DNA of 64,000 nt, taken from Nitrosopumilus sp. (GTDB lineage: Archaea > Thermoproteota > Nitrososphaeria > Nitrososphaerales > Nitrosopumilaceae). The position numbers were made by a program, and so were the translations under genes. Of this stretch, positions 55,982 through 64,000 are shown one piece after another; the stretch's first letter is position 1; each line of letters opens with the position of its first letter. The notes under the pieces were generated by a model that was not told where the DNA came from, ran no database searches, and saw only the letters and a list, made by a program, of their open reading frames with translations. The stretch is from the NCBI GenBank assembly GCA_965249555.1, contig OZ252243.1:224001-288000 (forward strand), in the 5' to 3' direction.

Positions 55982-56341
55982 TCAATCAAATTTTGTTACA
56001 AAAGTTCCTTTATGAGCACAATTAGGGCATCGTTGTGATTTTGCCCAGGTTTCTACAGTTTCAGAATATGCAATTCGTATTTTATAGGAATAACCATAAT
56101 TTTGACATGAAATGTTTGCGGAATAACTATTCTTATTCCAACTCTCGCACCAGGAACTGAAGTACTTGCAGAAACACCAGGACCTACAGTACCTACAGAA
56201 ACACCAAAAACTAAGGACTTGCTCCACTCTCCATTTGTTTGGAGTCCTAAGAAGGGGTGTTTGAGGGGACTTGTCCCCTCAATTAATGGAACTTGGCTTT
56301 TGATAGTATGCCTTAAGAATGGATATAATTTAGATATTTTA

Positions 56342-58006
56342 TTGAAATATCTGTTAATTGCACTTTTGATTATTGGTTCTGTTACAGTTACAACGGTATA
56401 TGCAGAAAGTGATAAGATACCAGCATGGGTTAAAGCAGTCGCTGGGTGGTGGGCAGAAGATAAAATTACTGATGAAGAATTTATCGAGGCTTTAGAATTT
56501 TTGATTGAATCTAATGTAATAAGCCCAGATAGTTTTAGTATTTTAAAATTAGATGAGCCTATTGCAGAACCAGTTGCAGAACCAGTTGCAGAACCAGTTG
56601 CAGAACCAGTTGCAGAACCAGTTGCAGAACCAGTTGCAGAACCAGTTGCAGAACCAGTTGCAGAACCAGAAATAATTGTTACAACAGATAAACCTAGTTA
56701 TGTTAGAGGAGAAATAATCCTAATTACAGGAGAAGTAAGTCAACTTATAGAAGAATATGTTATTCTTATCCAAGTGATATCATCAAATGGTGATTATGCT
56801 GCCATTAGTCAACATACAGTTGGTGAAGATAAAAAATTCAGCACTAGAGCATATACAGAAGGAGCATTGATGAAAGATTATGGAACATACATAGTTCGTG
56901 TTAATTATGGAGATGATATTTTAACAACAACAACATTTGAATTAAACAAACACCAAAAAACTGAAATTCGTTATGATGAGAGTGGAACTATAGGAGTGGC
57001 ATATGATGAGTTTGGAAATAAAATTCTCTATTATGGAAATGGAAACCCAAAATATGATTATGATGAGAATGAAATTAGAATAGAATATTATGAAAATGGA
57101 AATCCAAAATATGGTTATGGTGATAATGGAAGTTTCACAGAATATTATGAATATTATGAAAATGGAAATGTACTTTCTGAATATGATGAGAATGGAAATA
57201 CAATTACATATTATGAAAATGGAAATGTACTTTCTGAATTTGATGAGAATGGAAATCTAATTTCATATTATGAGAATGGAAATATAAGAAAAAAGATTGA
57301 TGAGTTTGGAAGAGTGTTTAGTTATTATGAAAATGGAAATCCAGAACGAGGAATTGATGAGAATGGAAATAAAATTACATATTATGAGAATGGAAATGTA
57401 GATACTGAATATGATGAGAATGGAAAAAGAGTTAGATATTATGAGAATGGAAATATAGAATCTGAATATGGTAAGAATGGAAATGCAATTACATATTATA
57501 AAAATGGGAATATAGAAGCTGAATATCATGCGAATGGATATGAAAAATTTTTGTATGATAAGAATGGAAATCTACGATTTGAATATTATGAGAATAGAAT
57601 TACAAAATTCGAATTTTATCCAAATGGATATGTAATGCATGAGTATGATGAGAATGGAAATCTAATTTCATATTATGAGAATCCAGAACCAGGAATAATT
57701 GTTACAACAGATAAACCTAGTTATGTTAGAGGAGAAATAATCCTAATTACAGGAGAAGTAAGTCAACTTATAGAAGAAGCACATGCTCTAACTTTCGTAT
57801 TGGTAACACCAAATGAAAATGTTGTTTCCATTGATCAGCTCACAGTTGGTGAAGATAAAAAATTCAGCACTAGTGTATATGTAGGTGTATTGATGGAAGA
57901 TTATGGAACATACATAGTTACTGTTACTTATGGTGTTGGAACAGATGATGCTTATTGGTTTTCAACAACAACGACATTTGAAATTAAACAAACACCAAAA
58001 AACTGA
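56342..58006 (+). CDS. Secreted modular repeat protein A (thaumarchaeal IPxWV domain, AEPV linker, Ig-like, YENGN/MORN-like repeats, Ig-like)
   Basis: TTG start at 56342 by homology with the paralogue at 61587; duplicated TTDKPSYVRGEIILITGEV domain. Confidence 0.85.
   Translation: MKYLLIALLIIGSVTVTTVYAESDKIPAWVKAVAGWWAEDKITDEEFIEALEFLIESNVISPDSFSILKLDEPIAEPVAEPVAEPVAEPVAEPVAEPVAEPVAEPVAEPEIIVTTDKPSYVRGEIILITGEVSQLIEEYVILIQVISSNGDYAAISQHTVGEDKKFSTRAYTEGALMKDYGTYIVRVNYGDDILTTTTFELNKHQKTEIRYDESGTIGVAYDEFGNKILYYGNGNPKYDYDENEIRIEYYENGNPKYGYGDNGSFTEYYEYYENGNVLSEYDENGNTITYYENGNVLSEFDENGNLISYYENGNIRKKIDEFGRVFSYYENGNPERGIDENGNKITYYENGNVDTEYDENGKRVRYYENGNIESEYGKNGNAITYYKNGNIEAEYHANGYEKFLYDKNGNLRFEYYENRITKFEFYPNGYVMHEYDENGNLISYYENPEPGIIVTTDKPSYVRGEIILITGEVSQLIEEAHALTFVLVTPNENVVSIDQLTVGEDKKFSTSVYVGVLMEDYGTYIVTVTYGVGTDDAYWFSTTTTFEIKQTPKN
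56564..56668 (+). repeat. 12-bp tandem repeat GCAGAACCAGTT x8.75 (AEPV)
   Basis: Perfect in-frame units. Confidence 0.95.
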
Positions 58007-58051
58007 AATTAGTTATGATGAGAATGGAACTAAAAGAAATTAATTTAAAAT

Positions 58052-58103
58052 TATAATTTTAGAAAAAAGGTAGGGTGTTTTGATTGAGATTGTTATGATT
58101 GTA
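58052..58103 (+). repeat. Intergenic hairpin repeat copy A, left half (right half at about 59431-59450)
   Basis: Aligns with copies at 61283 and 63179; split by the IS110 element. Confidence 0.85.
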
Positions 58104-58114
58104 TCCATGTGAAT

Positions 58115-58307
58115 TGTTTTTATACATTTCCTACTTTTTCGTATCCCAAGGCATAGCTTTCGCTAGAGAAGGTTTTCAATCAAAAGATGACGGACATGTA
58201 TCCATACGAGGCTTTAACCTCAATGCTATCTTCATCCCTTTATTAGGACCTATCCGCAGTTAAAAAACGAGGCTTGTCCCTCAACAATCATAACGCGACT
58301 TGCAGTC
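58115..58307 (-). ncRNA. Putative bridge/seek RNA
   Basis: Two loops, each with an internal UGAGG-N6-CCUCG hairpin; segments match the target flanks and one donor end. Confidence 0.75.
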
Positions 58308-59423
58308 CTAACTGTAATTCTGTACAAATTCTCTCCTCTCTTTTAGCATCCAGTAAATCACTCGCAGGATCTTTGATGATGCGGCAATTGCGGCCTTTGA
58401 TGAGCCTCTCTTCTTTTTAATGCGATTGTAAAATTTTGTAATGTCACTGTTCTTGGCATGTATTGTATGGGTATGGACGCATTGGATAAGGACCCATCGT
58501 AGTGTCACGCTTCCTCTTTTGGTTATACAGCCATGGTGTATCGTGTCTGCAGAGTTTCTGACTGATGGCACGACTCCTGCATATGCACATAACTTGTGAG
58601 AGTCATTGAATCTGTCAATATCTGCAATTTCTGATGCAATAACTAGTGATGCGTAATCACCAATTCCTGGCATTGATTTTATTATCATGGCATCAGGACT
58701 GGTCTTTACAGCAGCATACACTCTTGAATTAATCTCTGCAATTTGCAGATTAAGATAGTCTATCTGTCGTACAAATCCATCTATGCGATAGTCACCTAGG
58801 GAGGTGAGTCTTCTGTTGTATGTTACAGTGAACGTGACTCTTGGTATCTTGATTCCCTCCTGTAACAAAATTCCATGAACAGAATTTTTGAGAGAAGTTC
58901 TCCACTGAATGAGTTTTTTTCTGTATCTTACCAGTTGACGATGTTTTACTATCTTTTTGTTTGGAATATGGCATGTTGCAATGTATCCTCCACGCAAAAG
59001 ATCTGCCAGTATCTTGGAATCAATCTTGTCTGTCTTCTTTTTTGATGCAGCTATTGCCTTTGTAAGATACGGGTTTGAAAGTGTAACATTTTTGTATCCT
59101 AATTCATCTGTAAGAAATCTATACGTGCCATACCAGACTGATGATGACTCCATGACAATGTTTGCATGAATCGGTATGTCTGTAAAATGTTTCCTGATTG
59201 ATTCATGAGTGTTCTCAACTTTTATGTTTTGTAATATCTTTCCGTCATCATCCATTGTTGCCACTTGAAGAAATTTCTTGTGTAAGTCAATGCCAACATA
59301 CATGCCCTTGTCTTTTTTTGCCCTAATCTGTTTCTTTGGACTTTTCTTGGAATATGATGGATTACGAATCTTGGAATTAGATTCATTTCCTATGCTATCT
59401 GAATTCCTTCTTTTTGTATTCAC
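58308..59423 (-). CDS. IS110 DEDD recombinase, apparently intact (alternative start ATG at 59303)
   Basis: GIDLHK, VMES, KTDKID, PGIG and YAGVVPSVRNSA motifs. Confidence 0.95.
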   Translation of the reverse strand: MNTKRRNSDSIGNESNSKIRNPSYSKKSPKKQIRAKKDKGMYVGIDLHKKFLQVATMDDDGKILQNIKVENTHESIRKHFTDIPIHANIVMESSSVWYGTYRFLTDELGYKNVTLSNPYLTKAIAASKKKTDKIDSKILADLLRGGYIATCHIPNKKIVKHRQLVRYRKKLIQWRTSLKNSVHGILLQEGIKIPRVTFTVTYNRRLTSLGDYRIDGFVRQIDYLNLQIAEINSRVYAAVKTSPDAMIIKSMPGIGDYASLVIASEIADIDRFNDSHKLCAYAGVVPSVRNSADTIHHGCITKRGSVTLRWVLIQCVHTHTIHAKNSDITKFYNRIKKKRGSSKAAIAASSKILRVIYWMLKERREFVQNYS

Positions 59424-59646
59424 ATATAGTTAAAAATCATCAATGCCTAGATTCAATTTGTAACATAATTATAGTATGATTTTGAATAGAATTTATTGAG
59501 TTTTCCAGAAGAATCTAAAAAAGAAAAAAACAAAGAGCCTGTAGACAGATTGATAGTTTGTATCTTATCACCAACTATTTTTGGATTTATCTATTCAGAA
59601 AAATTTAACAAAAATCTAAAATTTCTAATGCTATTATCAATTCCTT

Positions 59647-61067
59647 GTATGTATCAACCTTCACGCACAAATCAACACTATTACACAAAAAGATCTAAGA
59701 TCAACTAAATCATCATACAAAACATGTCAGGTTGTGGTCATGAGAAAATCATCATACAGCTGCAAGCAGAGATAAAACAACTAAAACTAATCATAGAAAA
59801 TCTCATAGAATCAAACAAGGAACTGCAAAAAAAGCTGTCATATTATGAGAATGCGCACTCTCCGCCATCAAAGAATTCCCTTGAATGGAGAAAGCAAAAA
59901 AGACAACACAGACAGCCAGGCAAATCAAGACGTGGTGGAATAGCAGGACACGTTGGCAAGACACAGAAATTCAGACCAACTAGCACCAAACACCACAGAT
60001 CAGATGCATGTCCCAAATGCGGTAGTGAAAATATTCATCAAACCAAAACCTGCAAAAGGATAATGGTTGAGATTCCTCCACCAACACCCTACGGTATAAC
60101 TGAGCATGTTTTGAATCAATACATCTGCATGGACTGTTCTGATAATTTTCAAACCACGGGAAACCTTCCACTACATGGATGTTTTGATGGTTCAGTGATA
60201 CGTGAGGTCGTCTCACTGTTCTCAAAGAGATTGACATACGATGCTATCAGAACCACACTCTATGAAAGATATGGATTAGAAATCAGCAATACAACCGTAC
60301 AATCCATTCTTCGCAACGGTAGTGTGATGTTAGAGTCATTTTACAATACAATCCACAGCGAAATCGTGACTGAAAATATTCTCGGAATCGATGAGACAGG
60401 ATTTTCAATTGATGGAAATACTGGATGGATGTGGGTTGCAAGAAGCAAGACTAGTGCACAGTATGCCTTGGAGTACAGCAGAGGTGCCAATGTTCTAAAA
60501 AAGTACTGGAAGAAATTCAAAGGAACCCTAGTGTCTGACGGATATGCTCCGTACAGGACAGTATTTTGTGATAACACAAAGCAGAGATGCACCGCACACC
60601 TGCAGCGCGATGCCAAATATCTGGCAATAAAATCACAGGACAAAAAGGCCAGGATTCTATATGAGAAACTCTCAGGGATGCTAGGTCATGCCAGGGTTTG
60701 GAGTGTAGGTAATCGTCATACAAAACGGCGGGAAACGTACAGGAATGATTTACTAAAACAGCTGGACCGTATCATTGCACGATATTTGAAAGGTGATACG
60801 GAGATGGTTCAGTTTGGCAAGAAGCTAAAGACTGCAAGGAACAGCATGTTTACGTTTGTCATGGATGGCGATGTCCCGTCAACTAACAATGATGCAGAGA
60901 ATTCCATTCGAAAGTGCGTGATGCAGAGGAATGTTCGCGGGCAGATGAAGAGTGATCAGGGCATGAGGATGATCTCAGTCTTTCTCACATGCTTTGAGAC
61001 ATGGAGAATAAGGGAATTGAACATGTTTTCTGAGATGGCAAAATACATCTAAGTGCTTGATTCATAC
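59647..61067 (+). mobile_element. Single-ORF IS66-family element, 1421 bp
   Basis: Ends GTATGTATCAA and TTGATTCATAC; 8-bp TSD AATTCCTT at 59639-59646 and 61068-61075. Confidence 0.93.
59724..61052 (+). CDS. IS66 transposase
   Basis: Coiled coil, CPKCG, DETG…WMW, SDGY..Y, QRC.AH..R and TNN.AE motifs. Confidence 0.95.
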   Translation: MSGCGHEKIIIQLQAEIKQLKLIIENLIESNKELQKKLSYYENAHSPPSKNSLEWRKQKRQHRQPGKSRRGGIAGHVGKTQKFRPTSTKHHRSDACPKCGSENIHQTKTCKRIMVEIPPPTPYGITEHVLNQYICMDCSDNFQTTGNLPLHGCFDGSVIREVVSLFSKRLTYDAIRTTLYERYGLEISNTTVQSILRNGSVMLESFYNTIHSEIVTENILGIDETGFSIDGNTGWMWVARSKTSAQYALEYSRGANVLKKYWKKFKGTLVSDGYAPYRTVFCDNTKQRCTAHLQRDAKYLAIKSQDKKARILYEKLSGMLGHARVWSVGNRHTKRRETYRNDLLKQLDRIIARYLKGDTEMVQFGKKLKTARNSMFTFVMDGDVPSTNNDAENSIRKCVMQRNVRGQMKSDQGMRMISVFLTCFETWRIRELNMFSEMAKYI

Positions 61068-61282
61068 AATTCCTTTTGTTTTTATGTTCTTACTAGTACT
61101 TACATACACTATTGGTGATTTTGAAATACAGGAACCAAGCAAAATATTAGGATTTGACAATAGGATTGTTATTGCATTACTGTTTGTTTTTCCAATTATA
61201 TTCATGTATCGTTGGGCTTCTCAATACAATCTAAAGAATTTTGGATTTAAATCAAAGAGAGAATGGAAGAAAAATAGAGAAC

Positions 61283-61353
61283 TATAATTTTAGAAAAAAG
61301 GTAGGGTTATTTGATAGAGATTGTTATGATCATAAAAATAATCTATGAGTAAA
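61283..61353 (+). repeat. Intergenic hairpin repeat copy B
   Basis: TATAATTTTAGAAAAAAGGTAGGGTTATTTGATAGAGATTGTTATGATCATAAAAATAATCTATG; central palindrome TTATGATCATAA. Confidence 0.85.
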
Positions 61354-61586
61354 TTGATTTAGAATTGTAATTTTGGAATTGTAATTTTAGAAAAGAAGAG
61401 GACCTATTGCAGTAACACCAGGAACCAACACCAGGACTTTAGTTATAATTCTCTAATTGTGTTTTTTTAGTCTTTGATGGATTTTTCGCAGACCCAAATT
61501 TCTAAGGAAATTTGGCAGTTAGTGAGAAATTGAATCTTGTCTTTTGATAGTATACCTTAAGAGTGGTAAATTATTGAAATATTTTA

Positions 61587-63167
61587 TTGAAATATCTGTT
61601 AATTGCTCTTTTGATTATTTGTTCTGTAACAGTTACAACGGTATATGCAGAAAGTGATAAGATACCAGCATGGGTTAAAGGGGTCGCTGGGTGGTGGGCA
61701 GAAGATAAAATTACTGATGAAGAATTTATCGAGGCTTTGGAATTTCTGATTGAAACTAATGTGATAAACCCAGATAGTTTTAGTATTTTAAAATTAAATG
61801 AACCAGTTGCAGAACCAGTTGCAGAACCAGTTGCAGAACCAGTTGCAGAACCAGTTGCAGAACCAGTTGCAGAACCAGTTGCAGAACCAGTTGCAGAACC
61901 AGTTGCAGAACCAGTTGCAGAACCAGTTGCAGAACCAGTTGCAGAACCAGTTGCAGAACCTATTGCAGGAACAAACAATCAATCAATAAGAGAATATAAT
62001 GAGAATGGAAATATTGTTTGTAGTTATTATTATGATTATGGAAAGAAATTTGAAATTGAATCTAATGTGAATTTTTCTAAAGAATATGATGAGTATGGAG
62101 ATGTAAAATATGAAGGTGATAGTAATATTACTGATAAAATACTTTCTGGTTATAATGATGAAATCAAAAAATTTGAATATGTTATTTGTACTATGTATGA
62201 GAAGAATGGAGATCCTGCAATAAGATATTATTCTAACGGAGATCCATTCTTAGAACCTTGGGAAGGTAGAACTGAATTTTATGATAATGGTAATATACAA
62301 TATGAGTTATTTACAGCTAGTGGTTATTTTTCTAAAGAATATCATGAGAATGGAAATGTAGAATTTGATTATACTTCACGAGGATATCCAATCAATGAAT
62401 ATCATGAGAATGGAAATGTAAAAACTGAATATTATAGGAATGGAAATATAGAATTTGAATATGATGAGAATGGATATGCAATATTTTCATATTTTAGTAA
62501 TGGAAATGTGTGGCAAGAATTTGATGAGAATGGAAATGTAAGAACTTACTATGAGAATGGAAATGTAGAACGTGAATTTTATGAGAATGGAAATGTAAAA
62601 ACTGAACATTATGAGAATGGAAATGTAGAATTTGAATATGATGAGAATGGAGATGCATATACTTATGTTCATTATTCTTTGAATGGATCTATTATTTCTG
62701 AAATTGATGAGAATGGAAATAGAATTTATTATCATGCAAATGGAAATGTGAGGGAAGAATTTGATGAGAATAGAGATCTACGGCTTTACTATTATGAGAA
62801 TGGAAATCCTGAATCTACTTATGATGAGAATGGAAATAATAGAATTAAATATTATTCAAATGGAAATGTAAAAACTGAACATGATGAGTATGGAGGAACA
62901 AGAGTTGATTATTATGAGAATGGAGATGTAGAATATGTTTTTTATGGTAATGGATATTACATTCATTACTATTCAGGGGGATATGTAGAAATGCAGAATT
63001 TAAATGGGCATAATCTAAACCTAGGAATTGATGAAAATGGAAATCCAATTTATCATGAGAATGGAAATCTAAAATTTGAATTTGATGAGAATAGAAATAT
63101 AACTTTTTATGATGAAAATGGAAATATAGAGTTAGAATTTGATGAGACTGGAAATAAAATAAATTAA
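61587..63167 (+). CDS. Secreted modular repeat protein B (IPxWV domain, AEPV linker, YENGN/MORN-like repeats)
   Basis: N-terminal ~70 aa nearly identical to protein A; many ENGN repeats. Confidence 0.88.
   Translation: MKYLLIALLIICSVTVTTVYAESDKIPAWVKGVAGWWAEDKITDEEFIEALEFLIETNVINPDSFSILKLNEPVAEPVAEPVAEPVAEPVAEPVAEPVAEPVAEPVAEPVAEPVAEPVAEPVAEPIAGTNNQSIREYNENGNIVCSYYYDYGKKFEIESNVNFSKEYDEYGDVKYEGDSNITDKILSGYNDEIKKFEYVICTMYEKNGDPAIRYYSNGDPFLEPWEGRTEFYDNGNIQYELFTASGYFSKEYHENGNVEFDYTSRGYPINEYHENGNVKTEYYRNGNIEFEYDENGYAIFSYFSNGNVWQEFDENGNVRTYYENGNVEREFYENGNVKTEHYENGNVEFEYDENGDAYTYVHYSLNGSIISEIDENGNRIYYHANGNVREEFDENRDLRLYYYENGNPESTYDENGNNRIKYYSNGNVKTEHDEYGGTRVDYYENGDVEYVFYGNGYYIHYYSGGYVEMQNLNGHNLNLGIDENGNPIYHENGNLKFEFDENRNITFYDENGNIELEFDETGNKIN
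61800..61967 (+). repeat. 12-bp tandem repeat GAACCAGTTGCA x13 plus one variant unit
   Basis: Perfect in-frame units. Confidence 0.95.
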
Positions 63168-63178
63168 TTTAGAATTGA

Positions 63179-63246
63179 AATTTTAGAAAAAAGGTATGGT
63201 TATTTGATAGAGATTGTTATGATTGTAAAAATCATCTATGACTAAA
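63179..63246 (+). repeat. Intergenic hairpin repeat copy C (empty IS110 target)
   Basis: Contains GTTATGATTGTAAAAATCATC, identical to the reconstructed empty site of copy A. Confidence 0.85.
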
Positions 63247-63418
63247 ATTACAATTAGATCTAAAATTATTTTGTAGAATTTGAATTGTCTATTTGAAATT
63301 CATCTAAGTAATCATCAATATGATTAATGCACTTGTGGTTAGATAGTGCATAATCAGAATATAGAATCAATCCACATCTTACGCATTTTTGGGCGTCTTC
63401 AAAATGAATCATTAAGTC

Positions 63419-63970
63419 TTACCAATTACTCCAATTTCGAAAATCTAGATTTGGAAATTTCCTTCCAAGAATTATCCCATAATCGAAAAATTGTTTTTGC
63501 ATTGCTTTGAGATTAACTATTTCAGCTTGTTTTTTTTCTCTAAATTGTTTTGCTTGTTGTCCTAATTCATCTATCTCATGTTGGAGATTTTTAATCTTGC
63601 ATACTCTTTCTTCAAATACTTCATTAACTATTCTAGGCAAATTTTCTTTGAGATAATTTGAATCATAACCTGTAGATGATTCTTTTTTTTCAGTTGAATC
63701 ATTTGGTCGATTAAGCCATGCTCTTAAGTAATTTTCTGACTTTTTAGTTGGTTTGTTTGGTTGATTCCACCATTTTTCTAGTGGGGTTCTAGTATCATTT
63801 GGATCATCCTCAGTAAGTGTTGCAGCAGTTTTAAGAATTTCAGGCATATTATTTGCTGCATATTTGATAACTTTGCTCATTGTAGTGTCATTTTCTTTAC
63901 AATTTTTCTCAAATTGGTTTTTTTCATCATTACTGACATTAGCTGAAATTGTAGGCATAATATTTGGCAT
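63419..63970 (-). CDS. Hypothetical protein with an RHH-like N-terminus and a coiled coil
   Basis: TISANVS..EK..F…C…..TMS.VIK pattern. Confidence 0.55.
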   Translation of the reverse strand: MPNIMPTISANVSNDEKNQFEKNCKENDTTMSKVIKYAANNMPEILKTAATLTEDDPNDTRTPLEKWWNQPNKPTKKSENYLRAWLNRPNDSTEKKESSTGYDSNYLKENLPRIVNEVFEERVCKIKNLQHEIDELGQQAKQFREKKQAEIVNLKAMQKQFFDYGIILGRKFPNLDFRNWSNW

Positions 63971-64000
63971 AATGCTTGTGTTTATGTTTTCTAGAATTAT

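Follow-up and report, generated by a model that had tools for sequence, protein, structure and literature searches.

An IS110-family insertion sequence with an IS1111-type layout and a probable two-loop guide RNA in an ammonia-oxidizing archaeon

A 1331-bp element in a 64,000-nt stretch of a Nitrosopumilus sp. genome (the window; contig OZ252243.1, positions 224,001 to 288,000) is very probably an intact IS110-family insertion sequence guided by RNA, laid out like the IS1111 subgroup and carried by an ammonia-oxidizing archaeon. It encodes a recombinase and, right after the stop codon, a guide RNA of ~130 nt with two loops. A first-pass annotation of the window had proposed such a guide RNA, and this reading was borne out by guide stretches that are hypervariable and covary with the adjoining DNA among 20 copies in the genome, in three related genomes and across ten sub-families, as well as by compensatory changes in the fold. 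The archaeal origin of the host also agreed with the first pass: the archaeal small-subunit ribosomal RNA model scored 1455.8 bits compared to 1095.2 bits for the bacterial model, and an archaeal AmoA was found. The coordinates of all features are collected in Table 1.

The element belongs to the IS110 family by its domains, its catalytic motifs and its insertion without duplication beyond the core dinucleotide. The recombinase matched Pfam PF01548 (1.3e-23) and PF02371 (6.2e-20) and, over residues 42-364, the NCBIfam model NF033542, "IS110 family RNA-guided transposase" (218.8 bits; cut-off 140). Similarity to the IS621 protein was weak (E 1.9e-11). When aligned to the IS621 chain 8wt6, D46, E92, D132, D135 and S291 of the recombinase fell in conserved blocks, opposite the residues that we take to be catalytic in IS621; the DEDD and Ser motifs are thus intact, as had been claimed. 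The Ser motif reads GVVPSVRNSA, with SA instead of SG or TG. The conserved core of the protein family (331 aa) begins at Met41 (59303), and the frame opens 40 codons earlier. Downstream of the gene, 206 nt are non-coding (58102-58307); upstream, non-coding DNA amounts to 9 nt before the GTG, or to 129 nt with Met41 as the start codon. Every match in a tblastn search of plasmids was annotated merely as "IS110 family", and the best were haloarchaeal, with 33-35% identity.

The boundaries of the element are sharply defined. Homology with eight other full-length copies in the genome breaks off exactly there, and both junctions were spanned by contigs from public DNA runs. In the orientation of the gene, the left end (LE) and the right end (RE) read TA-TCCATGTGAAT... 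and ...ATTCACATATAGT-TA, respectively. Counting TA, the arms of the inverted repeat are set in from the ends by 5 and 7 nt, and without TA by 3 and 5 nt; the distances of 7 and 3 nt given previously mixed the two counts. The LE arm motif recurred in 11 of the 16 loci examined, and 14 had the RE end motif. Assignment to the IS1111 subgroup, also proposed at first pass, appears justified by layout: the RNA follows the gene, the inverted repeat of 8 bp is sub-terminal, and the top-strand guide is located 5' of the bottom-strand guide.

Table 1. Features of the IS110-family element and its surroundings, in window coordinates.
Feature	Position	Strand	Remarks
Whole IS110-family element	58102-59432	-	1331 bp including TA at each end
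Element ends, own orientation	LE = 59432; RE (RNA side) = 58102	-	
Core dinucleotide TA, RE junction	58102-58103	.	Twin at 59431-59432; single TA in empty sites
Sub-terminal inverted repeat, 8 bp	RE arm 58107-58114; LE arm 59418-59425	.	RE arm ATGTGAAT (+ strand); LE arm ATTCACAT; direct reading
Recombinase gene, 371 aa	58308-59423	-	GTG start inside LE inverted repeat; only long frame of the element
Target-binding loop with two closing stems	58242-58312	-	RNAalifold consensus, pair counts
Target guide T, GUUAUGAUUGU	58284-58294	-	Complementary to right-hand target, top strand, plus one core base
Target-loop hairpin, UGAGG-GACAAG-CCUCG	58268-58283	-	Stem (helix 3) kept across families with GC-to-AU changes
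Target guide B, UUUUUUA	58261-58267	-	Identical to left-hand target plus core TA
Donor-binding loop	58181-58238	-	5' strand GGAUGAAG, guides and hairpin, then CAUGUCCG and UCAUCUUUU
Donor T guide, AUAGC	within 58223-58229	-	Matches element end only as AUAG
Donor-loop hairpin, UGAGG-UUAAAG-CCUCG	58207-58222	-	
Donor B guide, UAUGGAUA	58199-58206	-	AUGGAUA vs. RE end TATCCAT, 7/7
Purine-rich stretch and TATA-like box, GGAAAUG-TATAAAAA	58116-58131	-	Faces out of RE; putative circle-junction promoter
IS66-like element	59647-61067	+	Transposase 59724-61052, Pfam DDE_Tnp_IS66 3.5e-41; 8-bp target duplication AATTCCTT
Unoccupied perfect target	63216-63233	+	0 mismatches; within ~80-bp host repeat
Degenerate target copy	61323-61340	+	3 mismatches, two adjoining the core

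The order of elements in the RNA after the stop codon is a stem, target guide T (GUUAUGAUUGU), the target-loop hairpin, target guide B (UUUUUUA), a stem, and then the second loop, in which a hairpin of the same kind is followed by UAUGGAUA. The minimum-free-energy fold of the single sequence was uninformative (z-score -0.83, with guide bases paired with each other), so an alignment of 17 sequences was used, which gave a consensus of five helices. In this consensus, 96.2% of cells were paired compared to 33-47% when the partners were slid, both sides had changed in a compensatory manner in 15 of 25 base pairs, and none of 500 shuffles reached the covariation score. The target loop is closed by stem P1 (58305-58312 with 58242-58249) and stem P2 (CGCG, 58294-58297, with UGCG, 58255-58258); helices 1 and 2 were paired at 96.6% and 100%, with both-side changes in nine of their 12 pairs. 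For the donor loop, covariation across the 17 relatives favors GGAUG/UGUCC as the closing stem; the GAUGA/UCAUC pairing of the first-pass annotation, as GAUGA(AG)/(CU)UCAUC, is possible and had one compensatory case. No Rfam family matched the guide RNA (E up to 1, 57000-64000), and the lone match elsewhere in that region, a Plasmodium snoRNA (E 0.58), was taken as chance. A small hairpin with a GAAA loop (CUAGCGAAAGCUAUG, 58152-58166, minus strand) separates the guide RNA from the TATA-like box and is present in most relatives.

The guides of the window copy match the DNA on either side of it. Guide T is identical to its flank, 58092-58102, at 11 of 11 positions, and guide B, on the opposite strand, to the other flank and core at six of seven, both much as reported at first pass. 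The flank then labeled left is the right-hand target in the orientation of the element, since its gene runs on the minus strand. The readings of the two donor guides, one complete and one partial, likewise stood. Taking out the element and one TA gives the empty site GTTATGATTG-TA-AAAATC, which has three exact, unoccupied counterparts: one at 63216-63233 and two elsewhere in the genome. When up to three mismatches were allowed in the window, 0.42 chance matches were expected, and six of 100 shuffles gave two or more. The perfect and the degenerate target copies in the window both correspond to sites noticed previously. The guides of the window copy are predicted to specify GTTATGATTG-TA-AAAAA, a host repeat. 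The repeat of ~80 bp that contains the target sits after each of two paralogous genes (56219-58006 and 61587-63167), whose secreted-looking products contain (PVAE)n and many YYENGN-type repeats.

Sister copies in the same genome separated the guides from the scaffold. The 2.23-Mb genome contained 41 matching places, nine of them full-length (91-100% identity) and about 30 partial, and a pattern search detected 22 target loops. Twenty-one copies with at least 248 nt of the RNA-side end were aligned, and guide statistics were computed on 20 after one with a 63-nt deletion was dropped. The RNA tail was near-constant across the 21 copies except at the two guide stretches. Pairwise difference per site was 0.316 for the guides, 0.057 for the scaffold and 0.064 for the remainder of the end, which makes guide positions 5.5 times more variable than the scaffold; variable columns numbered 14 of 18, 23 of 117 and 20 of 80, respectively. 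Guide T was identical to its own flank at 127 of 200 positions, compared to a mean of 111.4 (standard deviation 4.6) for shuffled flanks, and 17 of 20,000 shuffles reached the observed count. By copy, the match was 8-10 of 10 positions in nine of the 20 copies and 6-7 in three. The guide-flank signal in this genome is real, yet not universal.

At least ten guide variants occur on the one scaffold, and all copies share the same ends. Most sister guides read ..GUAUGU and GUUGAUA, which jointly specify GTATG-TA-TCAAC; those of the window copy differ from the commonest ones at three positions in each guide. An IS66-like element begins with these 12 bases, and GTATG-TA-TCAA(C/G) represents both of its ends. 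The IS66-like element next to the window copy has imperfect terminal repeats and an unoccupied GTATG-TA-TCAAC target at its start. A 17-nt motif from the left end of this element, CCTTC[AG]CGCACAAATCA, had 41 occurrences in the genome, about 30 of which run on into the interior of the element. One sister copy was inserted exactly in GTATG-TA-TCAAC and others in the similar right end. The ends of IS66-like elements are the main target of IS110 copies in this genome; the previous suggestion that the system is aimed at a host repeat holds for the window copy and does not for most of its sisters.

Several junctions of IS110 copies with other repeats were also observed. Seven copies (for example, C1:2210573, 1247656, and 2071101) have the gene-side end TA-GCTATATG in place of the TA-ACTATATG of the others and directly adjoin the first 29 nt of an IS66-like left end, beyond which the DNA is unique. 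Three copies of this kind are full-length, and their other flank agrees with the guide. No 8-bp duplication connects the two flanks of the seven copies, and neither a longer element, a composite mobilized by IS66 (no 8-bp duplication), nor a deletion product fully fits them. Two places resemble this junction minus the IS110 copy (AAATCAA-TA-CATAC...). The TA-GCTATATG junctions could reflect one-ended or copy-to-copy recombination, or deletion. Six IS110 fragments end at one point ~512 nt from the RNA-side end, and five of these (C1:1584120, 2219668, 2075544, 57115, and 1839073) run into the same unrelated repeat, TCCCATACGAAATCG..., consistent with either another element inserting at one site of the recombinase gene or a copied composite unit. 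Mini-derivatives of the IS66-like element of ~35-55 bp (minus-strand offsets 1723807 and 160451) consist of the initial 29 nt of the element and the final 5-24 nt of its right end, joined at TA.

Relatives of the element are widespread in the same archaeal family. Protein homologs were detected in 34 of 201 sampled family genomes (10 of 27 genera), and a covariance model built from the 17-sequence alignment detected the guide RNA in 20 of 151 family genomes (nine of 27 genera). The layout of the RNA tail was unchanged down to ~40% protein identity. With filters off, the covariance model gave no match at four loci of distant relatives (two haloarchaeal, one from Ensifer and one from a Shigella plasmid), which is silent on whether these loci carry a guide RNA. 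Copies in three related genomes also showed covariation of guides with flanks. In one genome of the same genus (G177), ten copies matched their flanks at 8-10 of 10 positions, with guide B, UCUAAUA, equal to the LE flank, TCTAA-TA. The RNA-bearing ends of these ten copies are 99-100% identical, which indicates recent activity of the same family. In another genome (G044), each of three flank variants matched the guide variant that adjoins it.

Guides also tracked their DNA across families. The donor B guide changed with the element ends (AUGGAUA with CATGGATA and AUAGAUA with CATAGATA), and the donor T guide with LE (AUAG with CTAT and AUGG with CCAT). With one hand-chosen representative for each of ten sub-families and three registers allowed for guide T, T guides matched their own flanks with a sum of 67 compared to 47.3 +/- 4.2 when permuted (reached by two of 50,000 permutations); B guides matched at 37 of 50 positions compared to 14.3 +/- 4.1 (reached by none of 50,000). 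The distance from the hairpin to the guide T base that pairs beside the core appears to be 0, 1, 2 or 3 nt, depending on the sub-family (loci L041-L095), and the length of the guide stretch is constant. Several sub-families of different genera have flanks with GGTCTAAT in common, which is perhaps the end of another common element.

These patterns are consistent with the following mechanism. The recombinase, with its DEDD and Ser residues, would work with an RNA of ~130 nt that has two internal loops, each divided by a small hairpin. To the right of the insertion point, the 5' strand of the target loop (guide T) would pair with the top DNA strand; to the left, the 3' strand (guide B) would pair with the bottom strand, and both guides would reach the TA core. 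The donor loop, which has the same arrangement, would read both element ends joined in a circle, and recombination at the TA core would insert the circle with no duplication beyond the core. Production and binding of the RNA, formation of the circle and a reaction like that of ISEc11 and IS621 are inferred.

The two ends of the element suggest how the recombinase may be expressed. At RE, a run of 7-9 nt of A and T only (TATAAAAA in the window copy) ends 13-16 nt before the end of the element in 13 of the 14 loci with the end located, even in those of 58-63% GC, and in several families it has a purine-rich, GAAA-like stretch before it. At LE, the GTG in the inverted repeat starts 7 nt inside the end; in all 11 loci with the motif (16 examined), it is in the recombinase frame, 31-63 codons ahead of the conserved Met. 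Circularization would place the TATA-like box about 20-23 nt upstream of the GTG, roughly the spacing between a TATA box and the start site in archaea. In Haloferax, leaderless mRNAs that start with GUG have been documented (PMC4983044). Since the TATA-like box faces outward at RE and an in-frame GTG is present at LE, we suggest that the recombinase gene is active in the excised circle alone. Joining of RE to LE, which occurs only in a circle or a tandem copy, would create a promoter and a leaderless recombinase mRNA, the guide RNA would be cut from the 3' part of the circle-derived transcript, and an integrated copy would be silent unless transcribed from outside. This arrangement, with a box resembling a B recognition element (BRE) and TATA box, would be the archaeal counterpart of a circle-junction promoter; our literature search found no paper on an archaeal TATA-type junction promoter.

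The joined form was not seen in the sequences searched. The RE-TA-LE junction, CACATATAGT-TA-TCCATGTG, was absent from the genome and from the loci of relatives examined, and contigs of four DNA runs over 57600-59900 included no joint that skips the element and none that unites its ends. The sole contig joint (59430 to 59652) represents a sister copy sitting in an IS66-like end. With at least ten guide variants and ends common to all copies, guide RNAs may act in trans, so that any copy could be sent to any of several targets, and this would account for copies that do not fit their own guide. We hold the whole archaeal wiring (BRE/TATA-like box, GTG in the repeat, circle-only leaderless mRNA), together with guides acting in trans among the ten variants, as a tentative proposal whose chances fall slightly short of even.

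Several observations weigh against the reading of the element as a working, RNA-guided insertion sequence. Guide T fits its own flank at merely 1-5 of 10 positions in eight of the 20 copies, and guide B is good in just three of the ten two-ended copies (7/7, 6/7 and 5/7), with 2-4 of 7 in the other seven. The donor T guide is only 4-5 nt long, and its C is mismatched at its own element end. An apparent shift of 0-3 nt in the register of guide T is odd for a fixed ribonucleoprotein, and since several registers were allowed, chance matches are inflated. Besides the choice of representatives by hand, the test of ten sub-families used locus L059 for G019A and not L058, which is one base short in the flank. 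Copies in the genome have diverged by 5-9%, and the reading frame is kept in only three of the nine full-length ones. Perfect free targets are still empty: the window copy has three of them and its sisters have dozens. Where copies fit their own guides poorly, the cause could be decay, later rearrangement, or guide RNAs that act in trans. The first-pass claim that the recombinase is programmable is suggested by natural guide-flank covariation, with different guides beside different flanks, and is tempered by the eight copies that do not fit their own guide.

The divergence, the frames broken in six of nine full-length copies and the fragmentary state of about 30 others are what would be expected if the element was built as an RNA-guided insertion sequence and is immobile now, a well-preserved relic whose guide mirrors a site entered long ago. 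The three unused targets of the window copy point the same way, as do the simple insertion in just one of the IS66-like GTATG-TA-TCAAC ends and the lack of a circle or empty-site joint in the contigs and of a tandem junction in the genome. Contigs would not reveal rare circles, however, and in the window copy the frame of 371 aa is intact, no catalytic residue is missing, and the guides fit the flanks without drift. Two other copies are intact as well, and the near-identical ends in G177 speak for recent activity in the family. We consider a relic unlikely, with enough in its favor to be kept in mind.

Copies unlike their own guide and the varying register of the match would also be expected if the protein chose the target, or if flank-like stretches were copied at insertion and the tail were a 3' untranslated region or a regulatory RNA with the matches as by-products. 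In that case it is hard to see why the same two scaffold positions match in elements of 40-59% protein identity with unrelated targets. Moreover, one guide is sense and one antisense relative to the flank, which copying would not yield, the surrounding helices covary, and the RNA was shown to be essential and reprogrammable in bacterial relatives (PMC11187229; PMC11208160). We regard this explanation as very improbable. Chance would have had some room to produce the 11/11 match, since it came from a free-ranging scan of a 200-nt tail on both strands in an A/T-rich genome. The matching positions are nevertheless the hypervariable ones among the 20 copies, the second guide matches at six of seven, and permutation tests reject chance both in the genome and across families, which leaves it a negligible probability. 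An RNA-guided insertion sequence remains the preferred reading.

IS110/IS1111-type RNA-guided recombinases have, to our knowledge, been characterized only in bacteria, and their archaeal homologs are mainly protein matches. The authors of the bridge RNA paper state that the IS110 family occurs in archaea (Durrant et al., 2024; PMC11208160), and a preprint lists 662 archaeal IS110 recombinases (10.1101/2024.06.21.599552). A search of the literature found no paper on IS110 elements in ammonia-oxidizing archaea; the 2024 supplements on predicted bridge RNAs may include archaeal entries. The elements described here provide a natural experiment, in which one scaffold with ten or more guide variants and readable targets helps define the programmable positions of the RNA in this branch. 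They mostly attack the ends of another transposon and are present in about a third of the sampled genera of a family of ammonia oxidizers. If the proposed promoter is real, its TATA box and leaderless start represent a circle-dependent switch rebuilt from archaeal transcription parts.

The closest known systems are the IS1111 elements with seekRNAs, ISEc11, ISKpn4, ISPa11 and ISPst6, whose RNAs carry the top-strand match on the 5' side of the bottom-strand match (Siddiquee et al., 2024; PMC11187229). The archaeal element shares with them the DEDD/Ser recombinase, the longer non-coding region downstream, sub-terminal inverted repeats (7-17 bp in the IS1111 subgroup), the order of the guides, their overlap at the insertion point and natural reprogramming among relatives. 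Unlike them, it resides in an archaeon and is known from sequence alone. Its frame of 371 aa, with a variable N-terminal extension of 31-63 codons, compares to 330-350 aa in IS1111, and its Ser motif, G..P....SA, to SG or TG (GL-P----S/T-G). Co-transcription of the mRNA and a long RNA from a promoter at the joined ends has been proposed for IS1111 (PMC11187229); that promoter has bacterial -35/-10 boxes, whereas here a BRE/TATA-like box and a start 7 nt inside the other end are proposed. An IS1111-type element is known that prefers the terminal repeat of another transposon, similar to the sister guides for IS66-like ends, but the target here is an archaeal IS66-like element, and there are at least ten guide variants, one of them at a host repeat.

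The RNA also resembles the bridge RNA of IS621, which has target and donor loops with one guide for each DNA strand in each loop, a dinucleotide core common to donor and target, and a circle junction that rebuilds a promoter (Durrant et al., 2024; PMC11208160). In IS621, however, the RNA is encoded by the left end, upstream of the gene, and the core is CT, whereas in the archaeal element the RNA is downstream, the order of guides in each loop is reversed, and the core is TA. The seekRNA/bridge RNA mechanism was described in bacteria in 2024, and the element of this ammonia-oxidizing archaeon is a well-supported addition to that class.

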